Assembly (NCBI GenBank): GCA_947624415.1
Contig: CANQKH010000005.1
Location: 17,072-81,071, forward strand
Direction: 5' to 3'
DNA: 64,000 bases
DNA from: an uncultured Clostridia bacterium
GTDB taxonomy: Bacteria; Bacillota; Clostridia; Christensenellales; UBA1242
Position numbers and translations under genes: made by a program. How positions within the stretch are numbered: position 1 is the stretch's first letter; every line of letters starts with the position of its first letter. Of the stretch, positions 645-11,162 are shown in pieces. Below the pieces are notes generated by a model that was not told where the DNA came from, ran no database searches, and saw nothing but the letters and a program-made list of their open reading frames with translations.

Positions 645-1433
645 ATGTTAAAAGAAGTTAAAAGCAGAAAATTTGCAAATGGAATTGTATATGCACTTAG
701 GACGGAAGATGATTATCCGCTTGAAGTTACCGACACATTTTTGCCATATTATACTAAAGATGCAATTGGTAAAAAGCAAAATGCACTTATGTCATATGAG
801 GTTGGGGACAGGACTGAAAGGTGGATGATTGGGGTGTCGTGTATGTCGGGTTGCCCAGTTCACTGTAAATTTTGTGCGACTGGTCAACTTAAAAAGTTTA
901 GAAATTTGACAGCGGAAGAAATTTTTGAGCAAGTTAAGTTTATACTTGATAAAAATCCCGATTATGACCCTAAAAATTCAAAAGAATTTAAAATAAACTA
1001 TACAAGAATGGGCGAGCCTTTCTTAAATATTGAAGAGGTAAAAAAGGCTATTGAGATGATAAACGCCATTTATCCAAGCACCCATCACTACATATCAACA
1101 ATAGGCATAAAGGGAAGTGATTTTAGTTGGATAAAGGGTAATATTACTTTGCAGATTTCCCTTCACTCACTTGATGAAGAAAAGAGGAATTGGCTTATAC
1201 CATTCCATAATAAATATACAATCGAGGAACTGGGGCAGATAAGGACGGAAAGCAATTTGAAAACCACATTGAATCTTACATTAGTGGACACAAGTGATTT
1301 TGACATTGAAAAATTGCAAAAATATTTCGATAAAGACAAGTTTTTCATAAAATTATCGCCAATTAATGAAAATGCTGTGTCAGAGGGTAATCATCTTGGC
1401 AAAGGGGTTATAAAAGGAGTTAATTTGATATAA
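645..1433 (+). CDS. RlmN/Cfr-like radical SAM enzyme lacking its C-terminal AACGQL segment (large subunit of an apparently split enzyme)
   Basis: VSxxxGCPVHCKFCATG (CxxxCxxC), RMGEPFLN, ISTIG, ISLHS and IKLSPIN are collinear with RlmN motifs. The protein ends at 262 aa without the catalytic Cys motif. Confidence 0.85.
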   Translation: MLKEVKSRKFANGIVYALRTEDDYPLEVTDTFLPYYTKDAIGKKQNALMSYEVGDRTERWMIGVSCMSGCPVHCKFCATGQLKKFRNLTAEEIFEQVKFILDKNPDYDPKNSKEFKINYTRMGEPFLNIEEVKKAIEMINAIYPSTHHYISTIGIKGSDFSWIKGNITLQISLHSLDEEKRNWLIPFHNKYTIEELGQIRTESNLKTTLNLTLVDTSDFDIEKLQKYFDKDKFFIKLSPINENAVSEGNHLGKGVIKGVNLI

Positions 1434-2224
1434 TGGCTGTAAGAGAGGGTATATTTAGATATCGTATTATTACAAATTTAAATTGTAATATGAATGAAAG
1501 CACGGGTCCAAATGGAAATTGTTACTTTTGTTATCAACCCAACAAACAACCTCTAATGCTTGATTATGACAAGGCAAAAGAAACAATGGAGAAAGTTGGT
1601 GTTTTGAAAAGGGCAACAATAATGGGTGGAGAAGCGACAATTCGTAAAGACCTTGTGGATTTTATAAAACTTGCAAAATCATATGTTACAAATGATGTTT
1701 GCCTTGTTACAAATGGAATTTTGCTTAATGAGGAGAGGATAAAAAGTTATAAGGAAGCGGGACTTACAGAGGTTGCAATTTCCATATCATCTCTTGAACA
1801 ATATTACAGAAGACGAGAGCAGGCACTATTATGTAAAAAATACATTCCAAACACACGAATTAATATTCCAAAATGCAAAGAAAGCACAGGTGATAAACTT
1901 GTTGAGTTATTAAAAGTGATATTGACAGATGATTTTTATGTGATAGTTTGTGAAGATTTAATGGGAAGATATGGTGATTTTGATTTTCAAATAAAACTTC
2001 AAGCAAAGAAAATTAAAGATGATGGATGCAATTTTTATGATTATATTTGGAATGGACATCAGTTTGGGGTGTTTGGGAACTATATTGGTTATGATGACAC
2101 AGACATAATAATCACTCCCATTGGAAACTTTTGCAAGTGGGAGATGTATTGTGAAAAAGTTGGCAACTGTGGACTTAACAAAACGCAAAGTAGTGTAGAT
2201 AAAGATGGAATGCCTGAAAATTGA
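1433..2224 (+). CDS. radical SAM protein with atypical Cx11Cx2C cluster motif
   Basis: TNLNCNMNESTGPNGNCYFCYQ, IMGGEAT, LVTNGILL, VAISIS; TAATG overlap with the upstream gene. Confidence 0.8.
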   Translation: MAVREGIFRYRIITNLNCNMNESTGPNGNCYFCYQPNKQPLMLDYDKAKETMEKVGVLKRATIMGGEATIRKDLVDFIKLAKSYVTNDVCLVTNGILLNEERIKSYKEAGLTEVAISISSLEQYYRRREQALLCKKYIPNTRINIPKCKESTGDKLVELLKVILTDDFYVIVCEDLMGRYGDFDFQIKLQAKKIKDDGCNFYDYIWNGHQFGVFGNYIGYDDTDIIITPIGNFCKWEMYCEKVGNCGLNKTQSSVDKDGMPEN

Positions 2225-2648
2225 TTTTGGCTGTGGTTACAAACATAAAGAAGGTTACAAAACCTGCGACATAACCAATTTACCAAACCTTGACTACTAT
2301 TACGATGAGGAAAATGACAAAATTTTGTATCTCGGTGAATCATCAGTTGACGAGTTTTATTTGAGGAATGTTGTCCATCATATCAAAGATATAACAAAAA
2401 CTTTCCATTGTTTAGATAAATATTTGAAAAAAGGTGCTATAATTACAATAATTGATGTTCGAAAGGAGTTTTATAAAGAGAATTATTATCTTGATAACCT
2501 TTGGTATAGAATTATAATTCCCAGAGAGGAGATATGGTTTAGCTCAACCTATAGGGATTACTTTAAAATACTTGAAGAGATGAATTACCAAAAAGTAAGT
2601 TATAGTATAGAAGAGGAAAAGGAGGTGAGTATATGGAAAAAATTATAG
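2205..2648 (+). CDS. class I SAM-dependent methyltransferase
   Basis: Motif I KIDFGCG, SVDEFYLRNVVHHI, LKKGAII. Confidence 0.8.
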   Translation: MECLKIDFGCGYKHKEGYKTCDITNLPNLDYYYDEENDKILYLGESSVDEFYLRNVVHHIKDITKTFHCLDKYLKKGAIITIIDVRKEFYKENYYLDNLWYRIIIPREEIWFSSTYRDYFKILEEMNYQKVSYSIEEEKEVSIWKKL

Positions 2649-2752
2649 AAGCACTTGCAAAATGCGGATATGATTATGCTATTGCAATAGCAACCAAGGC
2701 TGAAATTGAAGCCGGTGCTGCGTGCGGACAATTAAGCATAATCATCGAGTAA
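2633..2752 (+). CDS. 39-aa peptide equivalent to the RlmN/Cfr C-terminal catalytic-Cys segment: MEKIIEALAKCGYDYAIAIATKAEIEAGAACGQLSIIIE
   Basis: Strong RBS AAGGAGGTGA at 2619-2628, ATG at 2633, TAA at 2750-2752, immediately followed by a terminator. Contains AACGQL. Below the ORF-track size cutoff. Confidence 0.85.
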   Translation: MEKIIEALAKCGYDYAIAIATKAEIEAGAACGQLSIIIE

Positions 2753-5456: not shown

Positions 5457-5485
5457 TTGACAATGGTGAGGCGTTAATGTATAAT
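5457..5485 (+). promoter_or_regulatory. consensus sigma-A promoter of the RNase R gene
   Basis: TTGACA-17 nt-TATAAT. Confidence 0.8.
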
Positions 5486-5536
5486 ATAAGTATAAATACT
5501 TAGTCAACACTAAAACTTATTATTTTAGGAGTTAAA

Positions 5537-7993
5537 ATGGCAAAATTAGAAAAATTAATAAAAATTAGAGAAAAGGTCTATCGGGAGATTGCTAAAAATC
5601 CTGGCGACCTTTTTTCTCTTCGTGCTGAACTAGTCAAGAAAAAAATAGTAGAGTCTGGCAATAAATTCGATACAGCAGTTGAGATGTTGAAAGAAAGCGG
5701 AAGAATTTATGTTAAGGCCGGTCAAGTCGCATTGGCTAAGGAGGCTTTAAAAATGGGAACGCTTGTATTCCGTGGGCAACTGGGATATGTTGTAATCGAC
5801 GGCGACAGCAAACAATATCAAGTGGACACAAGGTTATTGAATGGTTATAATACACATGATAGAGTAATGGTTGGCTTTAATGAACAAAAAGACATAAAAA
5901 CTCCTTTTGTTGTTTCAAAAATAGAAGAGGAAGGCCAAATATCAAACAATAATCTAATTTTGGGAAGAGTTGCAAAACTTGGTCATGACCAGTTAATATT
6001 TATCCCAAACGACAAAAGATTTACAAAAAATATTGCAATTTTAAATACAAAAAGCACAATTGCACAATATCAAGACAAAATTTGCCTGTTGGAACTTGCA
6101 CAAGATGAAAAGAATGGGCTTCCTGCCTTTGGTGTTATAAAAGAGATTGTTGGCGATGCTGGAAATCCTATTCATGAATATGATGCGATTGCAAGCCAAC
6201 ATGGTGCAAATATGACTTGGAGCGGTGATGGAATTGAAGAGGAAATAGCAAAAATACCAAGCGAAGTTGATTTAAGCAATTATACGTTGATAGATGAAAA
6301 TGGCTTAGTTGTAAAGGAGGGTGGAGAAGATAAACTTGTTGATTTAAGAGCCCTTGATTTTACAACGGTTGACCCAGCAACCTGCAAAGATATGGATGAT
6401 GCTATTTATTCAACATATAATGAAGAGGGTGATTTGGTTGTGTATACAGCGGTGGCAAATGTTCCAAAGTATGTTGACCTTGAGAGTGAAATAGGGAGAA
6501 GATATATACGTGGTGGTTTTACAATATATGCTCCAAACAAGGCATATAACATTTTACCTCCTCAACTTTCAACAAATATATGTTCTTTAAACCCTGATGT
6601 TGACCGACTTGCAATGGTTGTAAAAAGTGTAGTGGACGAAAAAACGGGTGAGGTTAAGTCAAGCACAATATTTGATGCAGTTATACAAAGCAAACGAAAA
6701 CTTAGTTATGAAGAAGCACAACAAATCACTGATGAATGTCAAACAAAGTTGAAGGATAAGATATTAAAGGGAGAAAAACTGACAATAGATGAACAAGTGG
6801 CATTTAATGCTTATGCTTCAAATATTCTTTGGAAAGGGTTTAATAATAGAAATTTAATAAATTTTGAGACAAAAGATGAATATAATGTTATTTTTAACAC
6901 AGATTTTAGTGATATTGTTGATATTTTGCCAGAAGATAATGTCCCATATCATCAGGTTATAGAGGCATTTATGTTGACGGCAAATGAGGCGACGGCTCAG
7001 TTTGCGAAGAAAAATAATATTCCAAATATTTATCGTGTTCACGATATGCCAAGAGAAGAAAAAGTCAATATGGCAGAAGAATTTTTTAAATATATTGGGA
7101 TTGAATTTAAAGGTGATTTATCTCCTGAAGGGATAAAAGAGATTATAGATTCTGTTAAGGGGACAAAACAAGAAAAGGTTGTAAATGATTTTCTTGTTAA
7201 ACTTCAAAGTAAAGCAAAATATAACACCAATACAAACCCAAGAAAGGTTGATTTTGTAAAATTAAGGCCAAGGGTGGCGGGAAAGAAAGGTAATACAAAC
7301 TCAAATGATAATTTGTCAGATGGGCTTCATGACATAAGCCACTTTGGACTTCAAAGTTATGCATATTCTCATTCAACATCGCCAATAAGACGTATAACAG
7401 ATTATGTAACTATGAACAATATTTTATCATTCATAAATGGTAAAGAACTTATAAGTGAAGACAGGGTATTTGAAATATGCGGACTTGCAAACATACTTCA
7501 AGACGAGAATAAAGACGCTGAAAGAGAATTTAATGAGGTTAGTTCTGCCATTTATTGTGAAAATAACATAGGCAAGATAATGAAGGGGCAAGTTTGTGCT
7601 TTTAAGCATGATTTGAATGGAGAAATAGTTGCTGTGGTTGAAAATGAAGAAAAGGGCATAAGGGTGAATATTCCTGTTTCCTCTTTATGCTCAAACAAAA
7701 GCACCAATCTTTCAATTTCTCCTTTTGGGAGTGCTGTTTTTGGGAAAAATAAATCTCATCCTGTTGTAAAGCTTTGCGATGAAATTACATTTAAAATTTG
7801 CAGTGCAGATAGAATTACACGAGAGGTTGTTGCGTCAACTGATTTGCAAAGTGTTACATCGCTTGAAGACACAAAATTACAAGAAAATATTGTTCAAAAG
7901 CCTGAAAAACCTCAAAAAACTTCAAAAAAACGTTCTTCGGCATATGAATATTATAAAAATTATGTTGAAAATCAAAATTATGAGGATCAATAA
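5537..7993 (+). CDS. rnr: ribonuclease R / RNase II family exoribonuclease
   Basis: RNB catalytic motif TVDPATCKDMDDA, IEAFMLTAN, YRVH, HFGL…YSHSTSPIRR; N-terminal cold-shock-like and C-terminal S1-like regions. Confidence 0.9.
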   Translation: MAKLEKLIKIREKVYREIAKNPGDLFSLRAELVKKKIVESGNKFDTAVEMLKESGRIYVKAGQVALAKEALKMGTLVFRGQLGYVVIDGDSKQYQVDTRLLNGYNTHDRVMVGFNEQKDIKTPFVVSKIEEEGQISNNNLILGRVAKLGHDQLIFIPNDKRFTKNIAILNTKSTIAQYQDKICLLELAQDEKNGLPAFGVIKEIVGDAGNPIHEYDAIASQHGANMTWSGDGIEEEIAKIPSEVDLSNYTLIDENGLVVKEGGEDKLVDLRALDFTTVDPATCKDMDDAIYSTYNEEGDLVVYTAVANVPKYVDLESEIGRRYIRGGFTIYAPNKAYNILPPQLSTNICSLNPDVDRLAMVVKSVVDEKTGEVKSSTIFDAVIQSKRKLSYEEAQQITDECQTKLKDKILKGEKLTIDEQVAFNAYASNILWKGFNNRNLINFETKDEYNVIFNTDFSDIVDILPEDNVPYHQVIEAFMLTANEATAQFAKKNNIPNIYRVHDMPREEKVNMAEEFFKYIGIEFKGDLSPEGIKEIIDSVKGTKQEKVVNDFLVKLQSKAKYNTNTNPRKVDFVKLRPRVAGKKGNTNSNDNLSDGLHDISHFGLQSYAYSHSTSPIRRITDYVTMNNILSFINGKELISEDRVFEICGLANILQDENKDAEREFNEVSSAIYCENNIGKIMKGQVCAFKHDLNGEIVAVVENEEKGIRVNIPVSSLCSNKSTNLSISPFGSAVFGKNKSHPVVKLCDEITFKICSADRITREVVASTDLQSVTSLEDTKLQENIVQKPEKPQKTSKKRSSAYEYYKNYVENQNYEDQ

Positions 7994-8814: not shown

Positions 8815-11162
8815 AAAAAGATTATTTAGATGAAGAGTATTTGGATTTACTAAACAGATATTTTAGGGCTGCAAACTATCTTTCTGCGGCACAGTTATAT
8901 CTTTTAGATAATCCACTTCTCAAAGAAAAATTAAAGCCCGAACATATAAAAAAGAAAATTGTTGGCCATTGGGGAACTGTGCCGGGGCAAAATTTCATTT
9001 ATACTCACCTTGATAGAGTTATAAATAAATACGATCTTAACATGCTGTTAATTTCAGGACCAGGACATGGTGGCAACTTTTTTATATCAAATTCCTATCT
9101 TGAAGGGGTTTACAGCGAGGTTTATCCTAAAATAAGCCAAGACAAAAAGGGGCTTACACGACTTTGCAAGCAATTTTCCTTTCCTTGTGGGGTAAGTTCT
9201 CACGTAGCACCAGAAACACCAGGCTCAATACATGAGGGGGGCGAACTTGGATATAGTTTGCTTCATGGTTTTGGTGCAGTTTTTGATAATAAAGATCTTA
9301 TTGCGGCTGTTGTAGTTGGTGATGGTGAGGCAGAGACTGGGCCACTTGCAACTTCTTGGCACTCAAATAAATTTTTGAATCCTGTTACCGATGGTGCTGT
9401 TCTTCCAATTTTACATTTGAATGGCTATAAGATAAGCAATCCAACCATTTTATCAAGAATATCTAAAAAAGAATTAAAATCTTTCTTGGTTGGTTGTGGT
9501 TGGGCTCCAATTTTTGTTGAAGGAAGCGATGTAAAATCTATGCACAAAAAGATGGCTCTTGCGATGGATGAATGTATTACAAAAATCAAAGACATTCAAT
9601 CTTCATTTAGAAGTGGAAAAACAACTGAACGACCAATGTGGCCTATGATTGTTCTAAGAGCACCTAAGGGTTGGACGGGACCAAAGGTTGTTGATGGGAA
9701 AAGGATTGAAGGTTCGTTTAGGGCACATCAAGTTCCAATTTCAATGACGGAACAAGGTCATTTGGATTTGCTTGAAACTTGGCTTAAGAGTTATAAACCT
9801 GAAGAACTTTTTGATGATAACTATAAACTTAAAAAGGAAATTGCAGATATATTGCCAAAGGGAGACAAGCGAATTAGTGCAAATCCTCATACAAATTTTG
9901 GAGCGACAAGATTAAAACTTCCACCACTTGCCAAATTTGCTGTTGAAATCGGTGAACATGGCTCTTGCAAAAAACAAGATATGCTTGAACTTGGAAACTA
10001 TATTAAAGAGGTATTTAGGCTTAATAGAGACAGTGCAAACTTTAGAATTTTCAGCCCAGATGAGGCAATGTCAAACAGACTTTATCATATATTTGATGAA
10101 GAAAATCGTGATTTTAATGCAAAAATAGATAAAAATGATGAATTTTTAGCCCAAAATGGAAGAATTATGGATAGTTATCTAAGCGAACACGCTTGCGAAG
10201 GGTGGCTGGAAGGTTATCTTTTGACGGGACGACATGGAACATTTGTAAGTTATGAGGCATTTATAAGAATTGTTGATTCTATGGTTTCACAACACGCAAA
10301 ATGGCTTAAAGTTACAAGGGAATTGAAATGGCGAAAACCACTCCCATCTTTAAATATTTTGCTTACATCAAATGTTTGGCAGCAAGACCATAATGGTTAC
10401 ACACATCAAGAGCCGGGATTTCTTGACCATGTGGCAAATAAAAAATCGGAAATTGCACGAATTTATTTACCACCTGACGCAAATTGTCTTATTTCCTGCT
10501 ATGACCATTGTCAGGCAAGTAAAAATTATGTAAATGTTATAGTTGCATCAAAGCATCCAAGTTGGCAATGGTTAAGTATGGACGATGCAATAAAACATTG
10601 CACTTTGGGACTAAGCGAATGGGAGTGGGCAAGCACTTGCGAAAAAGGGGAAAAGCCTGATATTGTTTTAGCAACAGCGGGCGACACACCAACACTTGAA
10701 GGGCTTGCAACTATAAAGTTAATAAGAGAATATTTGCCAAATTTGAAGGTTAAATTTATAAATGTTGTTGATATTATGAAATTAGAATCAAATGAACTTC
10801 ATCCTCACGGCCTTACGGATGATGAATTTGATGAGTTGTTTACAGTAGATAGGCCAGTTATTTTCAATTTTCATGGTTATCATAAATTTATTCATGAACT
10901 TACAATTACAAGACACAATAAAAATATAACTGTTCATGGTTATAAGGAAGAGGGGACAATAACTACTGCATTTGATATGAGGGTGCAAAACGAAATAGAC
11001 AGATTCCATCTTCTTATTGATATAATTGATAAGTTAGAGTTGAAAGAGGACAAACTGAAAAAAATGCTTGAAGATAAAATAAAACACCATAAGGAATATA
11101 TTGCAGAGTATGGTGTTGATATGCCAGAAATAGAAAATTGGAGATGGCAAAACACAAAATAA
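8811..11162 (+). CDS. xfp: xylulose-5-phosphate/fructose-6-phosphate phosphoketolase
   Basis: GHWGTVPG, SGPGHG, HEGGELGY, GDGEAETGP, QQDHNGYTHQ; ATGA overlap with tdk. Confidence 0.95.
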   Translation: MKKDYLDEEYLDLLNRYFRAANYLSAAQLYLLDNPLLKEKLKPEHIKKKIVGHWGTVPGQNFIYTHLDRVINKYDLNMLLISGPGHGGNFFISNSYLEGVYSEVYPKISQDKKGLTRLCKQFSFPCGVSSHVAPETPGSIHEGGELGYSLLHGFGAVFDNKDLIAAVVVGDGEAETGPLATSWHSNKFLNPVTDGAVLPILHLNGYKISNPTILSRISKKELKSFLVGCGWAPIFVEGSDVKSMHKKMALAMDECITKIKDIQSSFRSGKTTERPMWPMIVLRAPKGWTGPKVVDGKRIEGSFRAHQVPISMTEQGHLDLLETWLKSYKPEELFDDNYKLKKEIADILPKGDKRISANPHTNFGATRLKLPPLAKFAVEIGEHGSCKKQDMLELGNYIKEVFRLNRDSANFRIFSPDEAMSNRLYHIFDEENRDFNAKIDKNDEFLAQNGRIMDSYLSEHACEGWLEGYLLTGRHGTFVSYEAFIRIVDSMVSQHAKWLKVTRELKWRKPLPSLNILLTSNVWQQDHNGYTHQEPGFLDHVANKKSEIARIYLPPDANCLISCYDHCQASKNYVNVIVASKHPSWQWLSMDDAIKHCTLGLSEWEWASTCEKGEKPDIVLATAGDTPTLEGLATIKLIREYLPNLKVKFINVVDIMKLESNELHPHGLTDDEFDELFTVDRPVIFNFHGYHKFIHELTITRHNKNITVHGYKEEGTITTAFDMRVQNEIDRFHLLIDIIDKLELKEDKLKKMLEDKIKHHKEYIAEYGVDMPEIENWRWQNTK

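Follow-up and report, generated by a model that had tools for sequence, protein, structure and literature searches.

Two genes for what is probably one radical SAM enzyme: a split relative of RlmN and Cfr in an uncultured Clostridia bacterium and in phages

Introduction

Must the methyl-carrying cysteine of an RlmN-like enzyme reside on the same polypeptide as the radical S-adenosylmethionine (SAM) core? RlmN and Cfr are the textbook enzymes in which methylation proceeds via a methyl-cysteine of the protein itself, with a second cysteine for resolution, and the question is raised by a stretch of 64,000 nucleotides (nt) from an uncultured Clostridia bacterium (Christensenellales, UBA1242; GenBank assembly GCA_947624415.1, contig CANQKH010000005.1, positions 17,072 to 81,071), in the following called the window. 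An open reading frame (ORF) at 645-1433 on the + strand, ORF1, encodes a protein of 262 amino acids (aa) with an RlmN/Cfr-like radical SAM core, and a homologue of the C-terminal segment of RlmN is encoded separately on the same strand (2633-2752) as a product of 39 aa that ends in AGAACGQLSIIIE. A preliminary description, drawn from the letters of the window, had taken this for a genuine split in which the catalytic cysteine is supplied in trans by the small peptide. We consider it probable, at roughly 0.78, that the two ORFs specify a single class A (RlmN/Cfr-type) radical SAM enzyme that comes from phages, each ORF contributing one subunit; the two products are termed the large subunit and the peptide below. 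A literature search yielded no description of a split RlmN, with the proviso that supplementary annotation tables of phage genomes could still mention one, and the two-gene split of an RlmN-like enzyme appears to be undescribed.

Similarity of the two gene products to RlmN

Pfam assigns ORF1 to Radical_SAM (PF04055, 33.6 bits against a cut-off of 29.5) and Fer4_12 only, and the best NCBIfam match is TIGR00048, the RlmN model, with 85.6 bits, aligning ORF1 residues 57-196 with model positions 102-244. The closest known system is RlmN of E. coli, the C2-methyl synthase for 23S rRNA A2503 and tRNA A37 (TIGR00048; PDB 3RFA and 5HR7). Profiles were compared with a set of 12 aligned canonical RlmN-type proteins headed by the source genome's own RlmN. 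The latter is a separate canonical protein encoded elsewhere in the genome, recognized with 357.6 bits and equipped with both cysteines. In hhalign, the large-subunit family corresponds to positions 72-288 of the 342 positions of RlmN (probability 100%, E 6.4e-46) and the peptide family to positions 299-337 (probability 90.5%, E 1.3e-6). Together, the two non-overlapping pieces cover RlmN except for its N-terminal domain, and the split noticed in the preliminary description is real. All peptide searches were run with an alignment of homologs, not with the single 39-aa sequence; the peptide belongs to no Pfam, NCBIfam or PHROG family.

The likeness to RlmN extends from the CxxxCxxC, MGEP and SLH motifs of the core, present in ORF1 as CPVHCKFC (residues 70-77), MGEP and ISLHS and followed by LSPIN, to the C-terminal xACGQL loop with the methyl-carrier cysteine. 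Cysteines 70, 74 and 77 are invariant across 29 sequences of the large subunit, the mean column identity of which is 58%. Cys31 of the peptide, situated in the motif AACGQLS, is aligned by hhalign with the cysteine of the RlmN ACGQL motif, which is the methyl carrier C355 in the E. coli enzyme according to an excerpt of PMC9692996. In our peptide alignment (A4), all 19 peptides have Cys31, ACGQLS is invariant as well and AACGQLS occurs in all rows but one, which reads SACGQLS. Apart from Cys31, only the three cluster ligands are invariant cysteines in the split family. MAFFT likewise sets the peptides on the C-terminal cysteine segment of short single-chain relatives, such as P0258 and P0278.

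In RlmN the cysteine loop is part of a single chain, in the window it resides on a separate 39-aa product, and there are further differences, two of which were absent from the preliminary description. The family lacks the N-terminal domain (RlmN 1-73): alignments begin at RlmN positions 72-74, and ORF1 has no additional N-terminal sequence. It also lacks the second catalytic cysteine. The position seven residues before the cluster motif, occupied by C118 in E. coli RlmN and by C105 in Cfr, is glycine in 120 of the 120 closest homologs and in representatives of the split family chosen at 50% identity, and hhalign and MAFFT both pair this glycine with the column of the resolving cysteine. RlmN-type proteins carry a cysteine here, the source genome's own RlmN included. 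Single-chain relatives with SNCGQ-type tails, too, are devoid of the cysteine at -7, so that the reaction is probably finished in another way in the wider group. Finally, the family has an insertion of its own, about 21 residues long (at residues 31-53 or so; TFLPYYTKDAIGKKQN...), which is located ahead of the cluster strand and in which T31, L33, P34 and N46 are invariant; the peptide is longer than RlmN by two residues in front of AACGQL.

Conservation of the split

Database searches with the large subunit gave 3,403 matches. The best 120 of them (70-98% identical) are nearly all 260-268 aa long and share a common end point, and representatives at 50% identity stop at the same point. The peptide on its own, at lengths of 21-91 aa, accounts for at least 2,742 database clusters, and JGI has named some of these 'adenine C2-methylase RlmN'. 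Loci were scanned by hidden Markov models in 35 sources, namely 13 genome contigs, 18 viral contigs, three cultured phages and the window; because L018, L024, L032 and L034 are near-duplicates, as are the window, L005 and L006, the independent count is lower than 35. In 33 sources, the large gene is followed by the peptide gene on the same strand; with ACGQLS invariant, this recurrence goes far past chance. The two are adjacent (2-28 nt) in 13 sources, are separated by ORF2-/ORF3-type genes, described below, in 15 and by other genes in five. In L016 the peptide was not found on a contig that ends 724 nt past the large gene, and the corresponding metagenome-assembled genome gave only a match with E 0.65. 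The other miss is L017 (5001-5648), in which the large subunit breaks off after some 108 residues and unrelated genes and a TnpB-like ORF follow. A separate case is L035 (4998-5391), the large subunit of which is internally deleted (model positions 117-225 are missing) next to an intact peptide gene.

The pair is also present, annotated as two hypothetical proteins, in three cultured GenBank phages: Kehishuvirus 'tikkala', which is a crAss-like phage of Bacteroides, Moorella phage MTATph1 and Pectobacterium phage Arno162. In the latter, the split is kept at a large-subunit identity of 36.6% (orf59 and orf56, with two small ORFs in between). It had been expected that standard gene callers would miss so small a gene; this does not hold, as the peptide has been called in at least 2,742 clusters and is an annotated coding sequence in the three phages.

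The peptide genes bear the marks of translation and selection. All 28 genes checked start with ATG, and a core resembling a Shine-Dalgarno sequence precedes 26 of them, the exceptions including the Bacteroides phage. For 31 core codons from 22 genes, the median proportion of differences was 0.79 at synonymous sites (pS), which are thus nearly saturated, and 0.17 at nonsynonymous sites (pN), and the ratio of the corresponding rates (dN/dS) came to about 0.12 in the 79 unsaturated of 231 pairs. The split is conserved, in a wide range of phages as well as in bacteria of the gut, and under purifying selection.

These observations bear on the possibility of gene decay or an assembly artefact, in which ORF1 would be a truncated pseudogene and the peptide its leftover, or in which the pieces would be joined by frameshifting, read-through or splicing. 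Some forms do look damaged (L017, L035 and the fusion proteins P0172 and P0180 described below). Thousands of clusters and the cultured phages share the same break, the peptide has a low dN/dS and its own ATG and Shine-Dalgarno sequence, and in the window two complete genes stand between the pieces, which are probably too short for split-intein halves. Since the frame offset of the peptide relative to the large gene is 0, 1 or 2, a fixed frameshift or read-through is excluded. As far as sequence can show, this highly improbable explanation is already refuted. The view of the preliminary description that this is not simple decay has been borne out, and the refuting condition that it named clearly does not hold: close homologs are not all single-chain, and the split is not unique to this assembly.

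Fusions and insertions at the junction

Besides the free peptide clusters, 61 longer proteins contain the peptide module. P0177 (318 aa) is a true single-chain protein of large subunit and peptide and is 57-59% identical to members of the split family (BLASTP). In P0189 and P0205, found in a search of representatives, the peptide is N-terminal to the large subunit, so that fusions are known in both orders. ORF3-type methyltransferases are fused to the peptide in 16 of the 61 proteins and, in reverse order, in one (P0165), and a different radical SAM enzyme, designated the L019 type after the locus, is fused to it in three (P0155, P0159 and P0164). In L045, a fusion of the L019-type radical SAM enzyme and the peptide is encoded 338 nt downstream of a large-subunit gene. 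The peptide further occurs C-terminally on a GIY-YIG endonuclease (P0170) and on an HNH endonuclease (P0181). Damaged or unidentified forms exist as well, such as P0172 with an out-of-frame stretch and P0180 with a deletion. A search of viral contigs for loci related to the methyltransferase-peptide fusion P0133 found none. We read the junction as a frequent target of mobile and neighbouring genes and the peptide as tolerant of extension at both ends. Another homolog of the large subunit, P0187 (601 aa), carries an intein-like insertion of about 340 residues with a homing endonuclease inside CxxxCxxC (CPVRCAF[C...HN]CATAK).

Structure models

The RlmN-type fold was tested on the natural single chain P0177; for the pair from the window, the only model is that of the complex. 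Based on an alignment (A5), AlphaFold2 predicted P0177 with a mean local confidence (pLDDT) of 91.4; the single sequence gave 35.9, and the alignment-based model was used. This model matches the radical SAM methyltransferase of S. thermophilus (6FZ6) and RlmN (5HR7/5HR6) best, with Z 27.8 and a root mean square deviation of 2.5-2.7 A over 268-269 residues, its residues 1-315 superposing on RlmN 74-362. The score was Z 19.3 for Cfr (the A2503 C8 methyltransferase; TIGR04432, NF000424; PDB 9P0P) and at most 14.2 for other radical SAM families.

When the window's large subunit and peptide were modelled together from alignments A3 and A4, the interface score ipSAE was 0.71, 0.73 and 0.77, and all three controls yielded 0.00. 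Partner pLDDT was at least 67 and at least 87% of the contacts were common to the runs. The mark applied to ipSAE is reached by 58 of 80 solved complexes and by two of 110 mismatched pairs, rates that are only rough with custom alignments. In the model, peptide residues 13-17 (YDYAI) pair with residues 233-237 (FFIKL) of the large subunit, and further contacts involve large-subunit residues 74 and 76-79 in the cluster motif, 120 and 122 beside MGEP, and the family-specific insertion. The model sets the peptide along the final strand of the barrel and next to the cluster/SAM motifs, in support of the preliminary description. It shows that the pieces fit together as in RlmN and is not a demonstration of binding. 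Taken together, the supply of the catalytic cysteine in trans by a separate peptide is as well supported as sequence comparison and modelling allow.

Proposed mechanism and alternative roles of the peptide

If large subunit and peptide form one enzyme, the chain would be broken after the final strand of the barrel and ahead of the C-terminal helix-strand-loop. According to the model, the peptide strand YDYAI would dock onto FFIKL, the last strand of the large subunit, and thereby place the loop with Cys31 beside the [4Fe-4S]/SAM site. By analogy with RlmN, Cys31 would take a methyl group from SAM; the 5'-deoxyadenosyl radical would then convert the methyl-Cys31 to a methylene radical, the target of which would be an sp2 carbon in the substrate, probably in an adenine ring. 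Because the N-terminal RNA-binding domain and a cysteine of the C118 type are absent, both the substrate and the way in which the adduct is resolved should differ from those of RlmN. In the lineage of the window, the genes of another radical SAM enzyme and of a small methyltransferase are nested between the two pieces and would be co-transcribed with them.

Several points weigh against a two-subunit enzyme of the RlmN/Cfr type. ORF1 stays far under all RlmN and Cfr cut-offs (85.6 versus 290 bits for TIGR00048, 52.4 versus 550 bits for TIGR04432), and the peptide profile retrieved no RlmN chain from the PDB sequences at E <= 10. The good score of the complex may reflect a memory of single-chain RlmN in the modelling program, given that the pieces are halves of a split gene. 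The excerpt of PMC9692996 describes C118 as indispensable for resolving the protein-RNA cross-link in RlmN, the variant C118A trapping the cross-link; with glycine at the equivalent position, RlmN-type turnover can therefore not run unchanged. A cysteine at -4 is present in the window and in 92 of the 120 closest homologs, but is replaced by threonine in 22 and by valine in six. Fusions of the peptide to unrelated proteins, namely a homing endonuclease, an M23 peptidase (P0125) and a tail-fibre-like protein, could mean that its role goes past one partner.

The lack of the resolving cysteine leads to a different view of the peptide, i.e. as a consumable. Here, the adduct would stay unresolved and the peptide would end up covalently on a nucleic acid or nucleotide target, or it would serve as a single-use carrier of a methyl or methylene group, possibly passed among the large subunit, ORF2 and ORF3. 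The family-wide glycine (120 of 120) and the cross-link trapped by C118A in the excerpt of PMC9692996 are in line with this idea, as are the separate ORF with its strong-looking expression signal (AGGAGG) and the fusions to ORF3-type methyltransferases (17 of 61) and to the second type of radical SAM enzyme (3 of 61). The fusions of large subunit and peptide in a ratio of 1:1 (P0177, P0189 and P0205) argue weakly against it, for the whole enzyme would be used once. The single-chain relatives with SNCGQ tails and without the cysteine at -7 suggest another finishing route, and the nearby cysteine at -4 in 92 of 120 close homologs likewise speaks against consumption. A peptide acting as a diffusible methylene carrier, linked through its cysteine to an adenine nucleotide or nucleic acid or handed to the nested radical SAM enzyme and methyltransferase, is in our estimation unlikely, and we hold a consumable peptide to be less likely than a permanent two-subunit enzyme. 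If true, the diffusible carrier would represent a peptide-nucleotide conjugating system of phages and bacterial islands.

The preliminary description also considered a precursor peptide akin to those of ribosomally synthesized and post-translationally modified peptides (RiPP), which would be turned into a natural product by ORF1, ORF2 and ORF3. The layout is reminiscent of such systems, with a small ORF closing an operon that also encodes two radical SAM enzymes and a methyltransferase, and models of peptide maturases match ORF1 faintly (E 0.002-0.1). Against this, the peptide has its homologue in a segment of an enzyme and is conserved over its full length without a variable core, the large subunit is its sole neighbour in 13 of 35 sources, the surroundings contain no conserved transporter or protease, and a Pfam search of ORF1-3 gave neither an RRE/PqqD nor a SPASM domain. 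We regard a RiPP-like role as very unlikely and do not follow the earlier suggestion.

Comparison with known systems

Next to RlmN, Cfr is the closest known system. It shares the class A radical SAM methylase fold with P0177 and exhibits the methyl-cysteine chemistry with two SAM molecules typical of the class (excerpt of PMC9692996), which may also apply to the enzyme from the window. The match is weaker than that to RlmN (52-56 bits against cut-offs of 530-550); in contrast to Cfr, the window enzyme is split and has no equivalent of C105, and there is no sign of antibiotic resistance here.

A phage enzyme gene in pieces is found in nrdA of Aeromonas phage Aeh1, which, according to an excerpt of PMC3045599, is split by a homing endonuclease and reassembled from fragments. 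Both cases concern an enzyme gene of phage origin in separately translated fragments that need reassembly, and relatives of our pair have genes for homing endonucleases at the junction of the pieces (P0170 and P0181), with an intein in P0187. The split described here is, however, ancient and family-wide and not the accident of one phage. Its small piece is only about 40 aa long and bears the catalytic residue, and the inserts in the window are enzymes and not an endonuclease; no homing endonuclease was found at the break in the window.

Considered as two-subunit enzymes, the pairs make up a large natural family (thousands of clusters, with crAss-like, Felix O1-like and Moorella phages among the cultured representatives) that would have placed the first cysteine on a protein of about 40 residues and dropped the second. 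This would offer a natural system for studying how the adduct is resolved without C118, as well as a ready-made trans-complementation system for mechanistic work, and it points to a widespread phage function. Annotations such as 'RlmN' or 'radical SAM protein' would conceal a distinct enzyme made from two genes.

Operon layout and nested enzymes

ORF1 and the peptide gene are the first and the last of four overlapping ORFs on the + strand that make up a compact operon, all verified at the coordinates of the preliminary description. Between them reside ORF2 (1433-2224), a second radical SAM enzyme of 263 aa with a MoaA/viperin-like N-terminal half, and ORF3 (2205-2648), a small class I SAM-dependent methyltransferase of 147 aa. 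The overlaps amount to 1 nt (ORF1/ORF2), 20 nt (ORF2/ORF3) and 16 nt (ORF3/peptide gene), and AGGAGG is located 7-12 nt upstream of the peptide ATG. The operon is preceded by a candidate sigma-70-like promoter on the same strand (592-620), a consensus match consisting of TTGACA-17-TAAAAT with 11 of 12 matching positions and a TG. On the 3' side of the peptide gene, a terminator-like hairpin followed by a U-run (2786-2820, + strand) is suggested by its fold energy of -18.4 kcal/mol (z -6.07), which none of 200 shuffles equalled; a simple consensus scan listed no terminator, this hairpin included.

Pfam detects only Radical_SAM in ORF2. The protein matches pVip models at 46 bits, in its N-terminal half only, and its nearest Atlas clusters are mostly viral and consist of phage radical SAM proteins. 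ORF3 matches phrog_5399, a SAM-dependent methyltransferase, with 75.5 bits and Methyltransf_23 with 23.4 bits, which is under the cut-off. PADLOC gave no match for ORF1 or ORF3. Some peculiarities of the ORF2 sequence may be mentioned: its cluster motif is C-X11-C-X2-C (CNMNESTGPNGNCYFC) and not CX3CX2C, its relatives in L013 (5797-6534) and L018 (5802-6533) have C-X5-C-X2-C (CNMSPNCYFC), and its C-terminus contains a cysteine-rich stretch (NFCKWEMYCEKVGNCG).

The preliminary description placed both intervening enzymes in the same pathway as the split pair. This stands in part. No more than 15 of the 35 sources have genes of the ORF2 and ORF3 types between the pieces, and the pieces are adjacent in 13; the repeated natural fusions of methyltransferase and peptide (17 of 61) are good evidence that ORF3 works with the peptide. 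We do not treat the nested radical SAM enzymes as one family. ORF2 and the L019-type enzyme share a marginal likeness (E 0.003 over 74 residues), and a third domain in P0205 weakly resembles the L019 type (E 0.002) and has no likeness to ORF2 (E 0.16). In L019 (5817-6269) and L045 (3674-3979), small ORFs with C-terminal Cys-Gly tails (e.g. ...DPCGYSGGGRSPC) directly precede the nested gene of the L019 type.

Genomic context and origin

In the window, the gene order is ComEC, HolA, Fic protein, the cassette, dCMP deaminase on the opposite strand, an AONS-like gene and RNase R. The Fic/DOC protein, which has a Fic-like C-terminal domain, is encoded directly upstream and divergently on the - strand (1-456); it runs off the window and is present at full length in L005 (3792-4754). 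It matches the PADLOC model SoFic with 75.3 bits, and given this neighbour the cassette may sit in a defence-type island. The distribution is patchy. Two of 101 genomes of the same family contain the cassette, the source genome counted; it was not found in the same-genus genomes G052 and G094, and a synteny check did not find the AONS-like gene in the same-genus genomes G052, G094 and G096. The contig may be accessory DNA or mis-binned, and we regard the cassette as an island of phage origin within a chromosome of a bacterium. The source assembly has 1.45 Mb and 5.2% contamination, and genomes of the same genus have about 0.9 Mb.

Neighbouring genes at other loci provide leads on the substrate. 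Phage loci feature NAMPT (five loci), NMNAT-Nudix (seven loci) and also ADP-ribosylglycohydrolase, the bacterial loci L011 and L012 have neighbours of the NadE/NadD type, and RtcB, RNA ligase and CCA-adding enzyme occur at other loci. These neighbours hint at salvage of nicotinamide adenine dinucleotide (NAD) or at tRNA repair, and the leads are adenine in a nucleotide (NAD-type) or adenine in tRNA or rRNA. As many loci are related to each other, no substrate is drawn from the neighbours. Nor is there a clear linkage to tRNA, since tRNA genes were present in the fetched flanks of only four of the 20 loci scanned.

Three further loci exhibit unusual arrangements. In L021, ARAGORN predicts a tRNA with a four-base anticodon (catc) at 5932-6012, 12 nt past the peptide gene; it could resemble a frameshift suppressor or be a miscall. 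The phage contig L025 encodes, 3 kb downstream of its split pair, a single-chain RlmN-like paralog of 282 aa with a C-terminal SSCGQF motif of its own (8943-9791). In L045, an RtcB-like RNA ligase beside the pair is encoded in two ORFs (5470-6027 and 6219-7049) about 190 nt apart, which could be due to a frameshift, an intron or an intein remnant.

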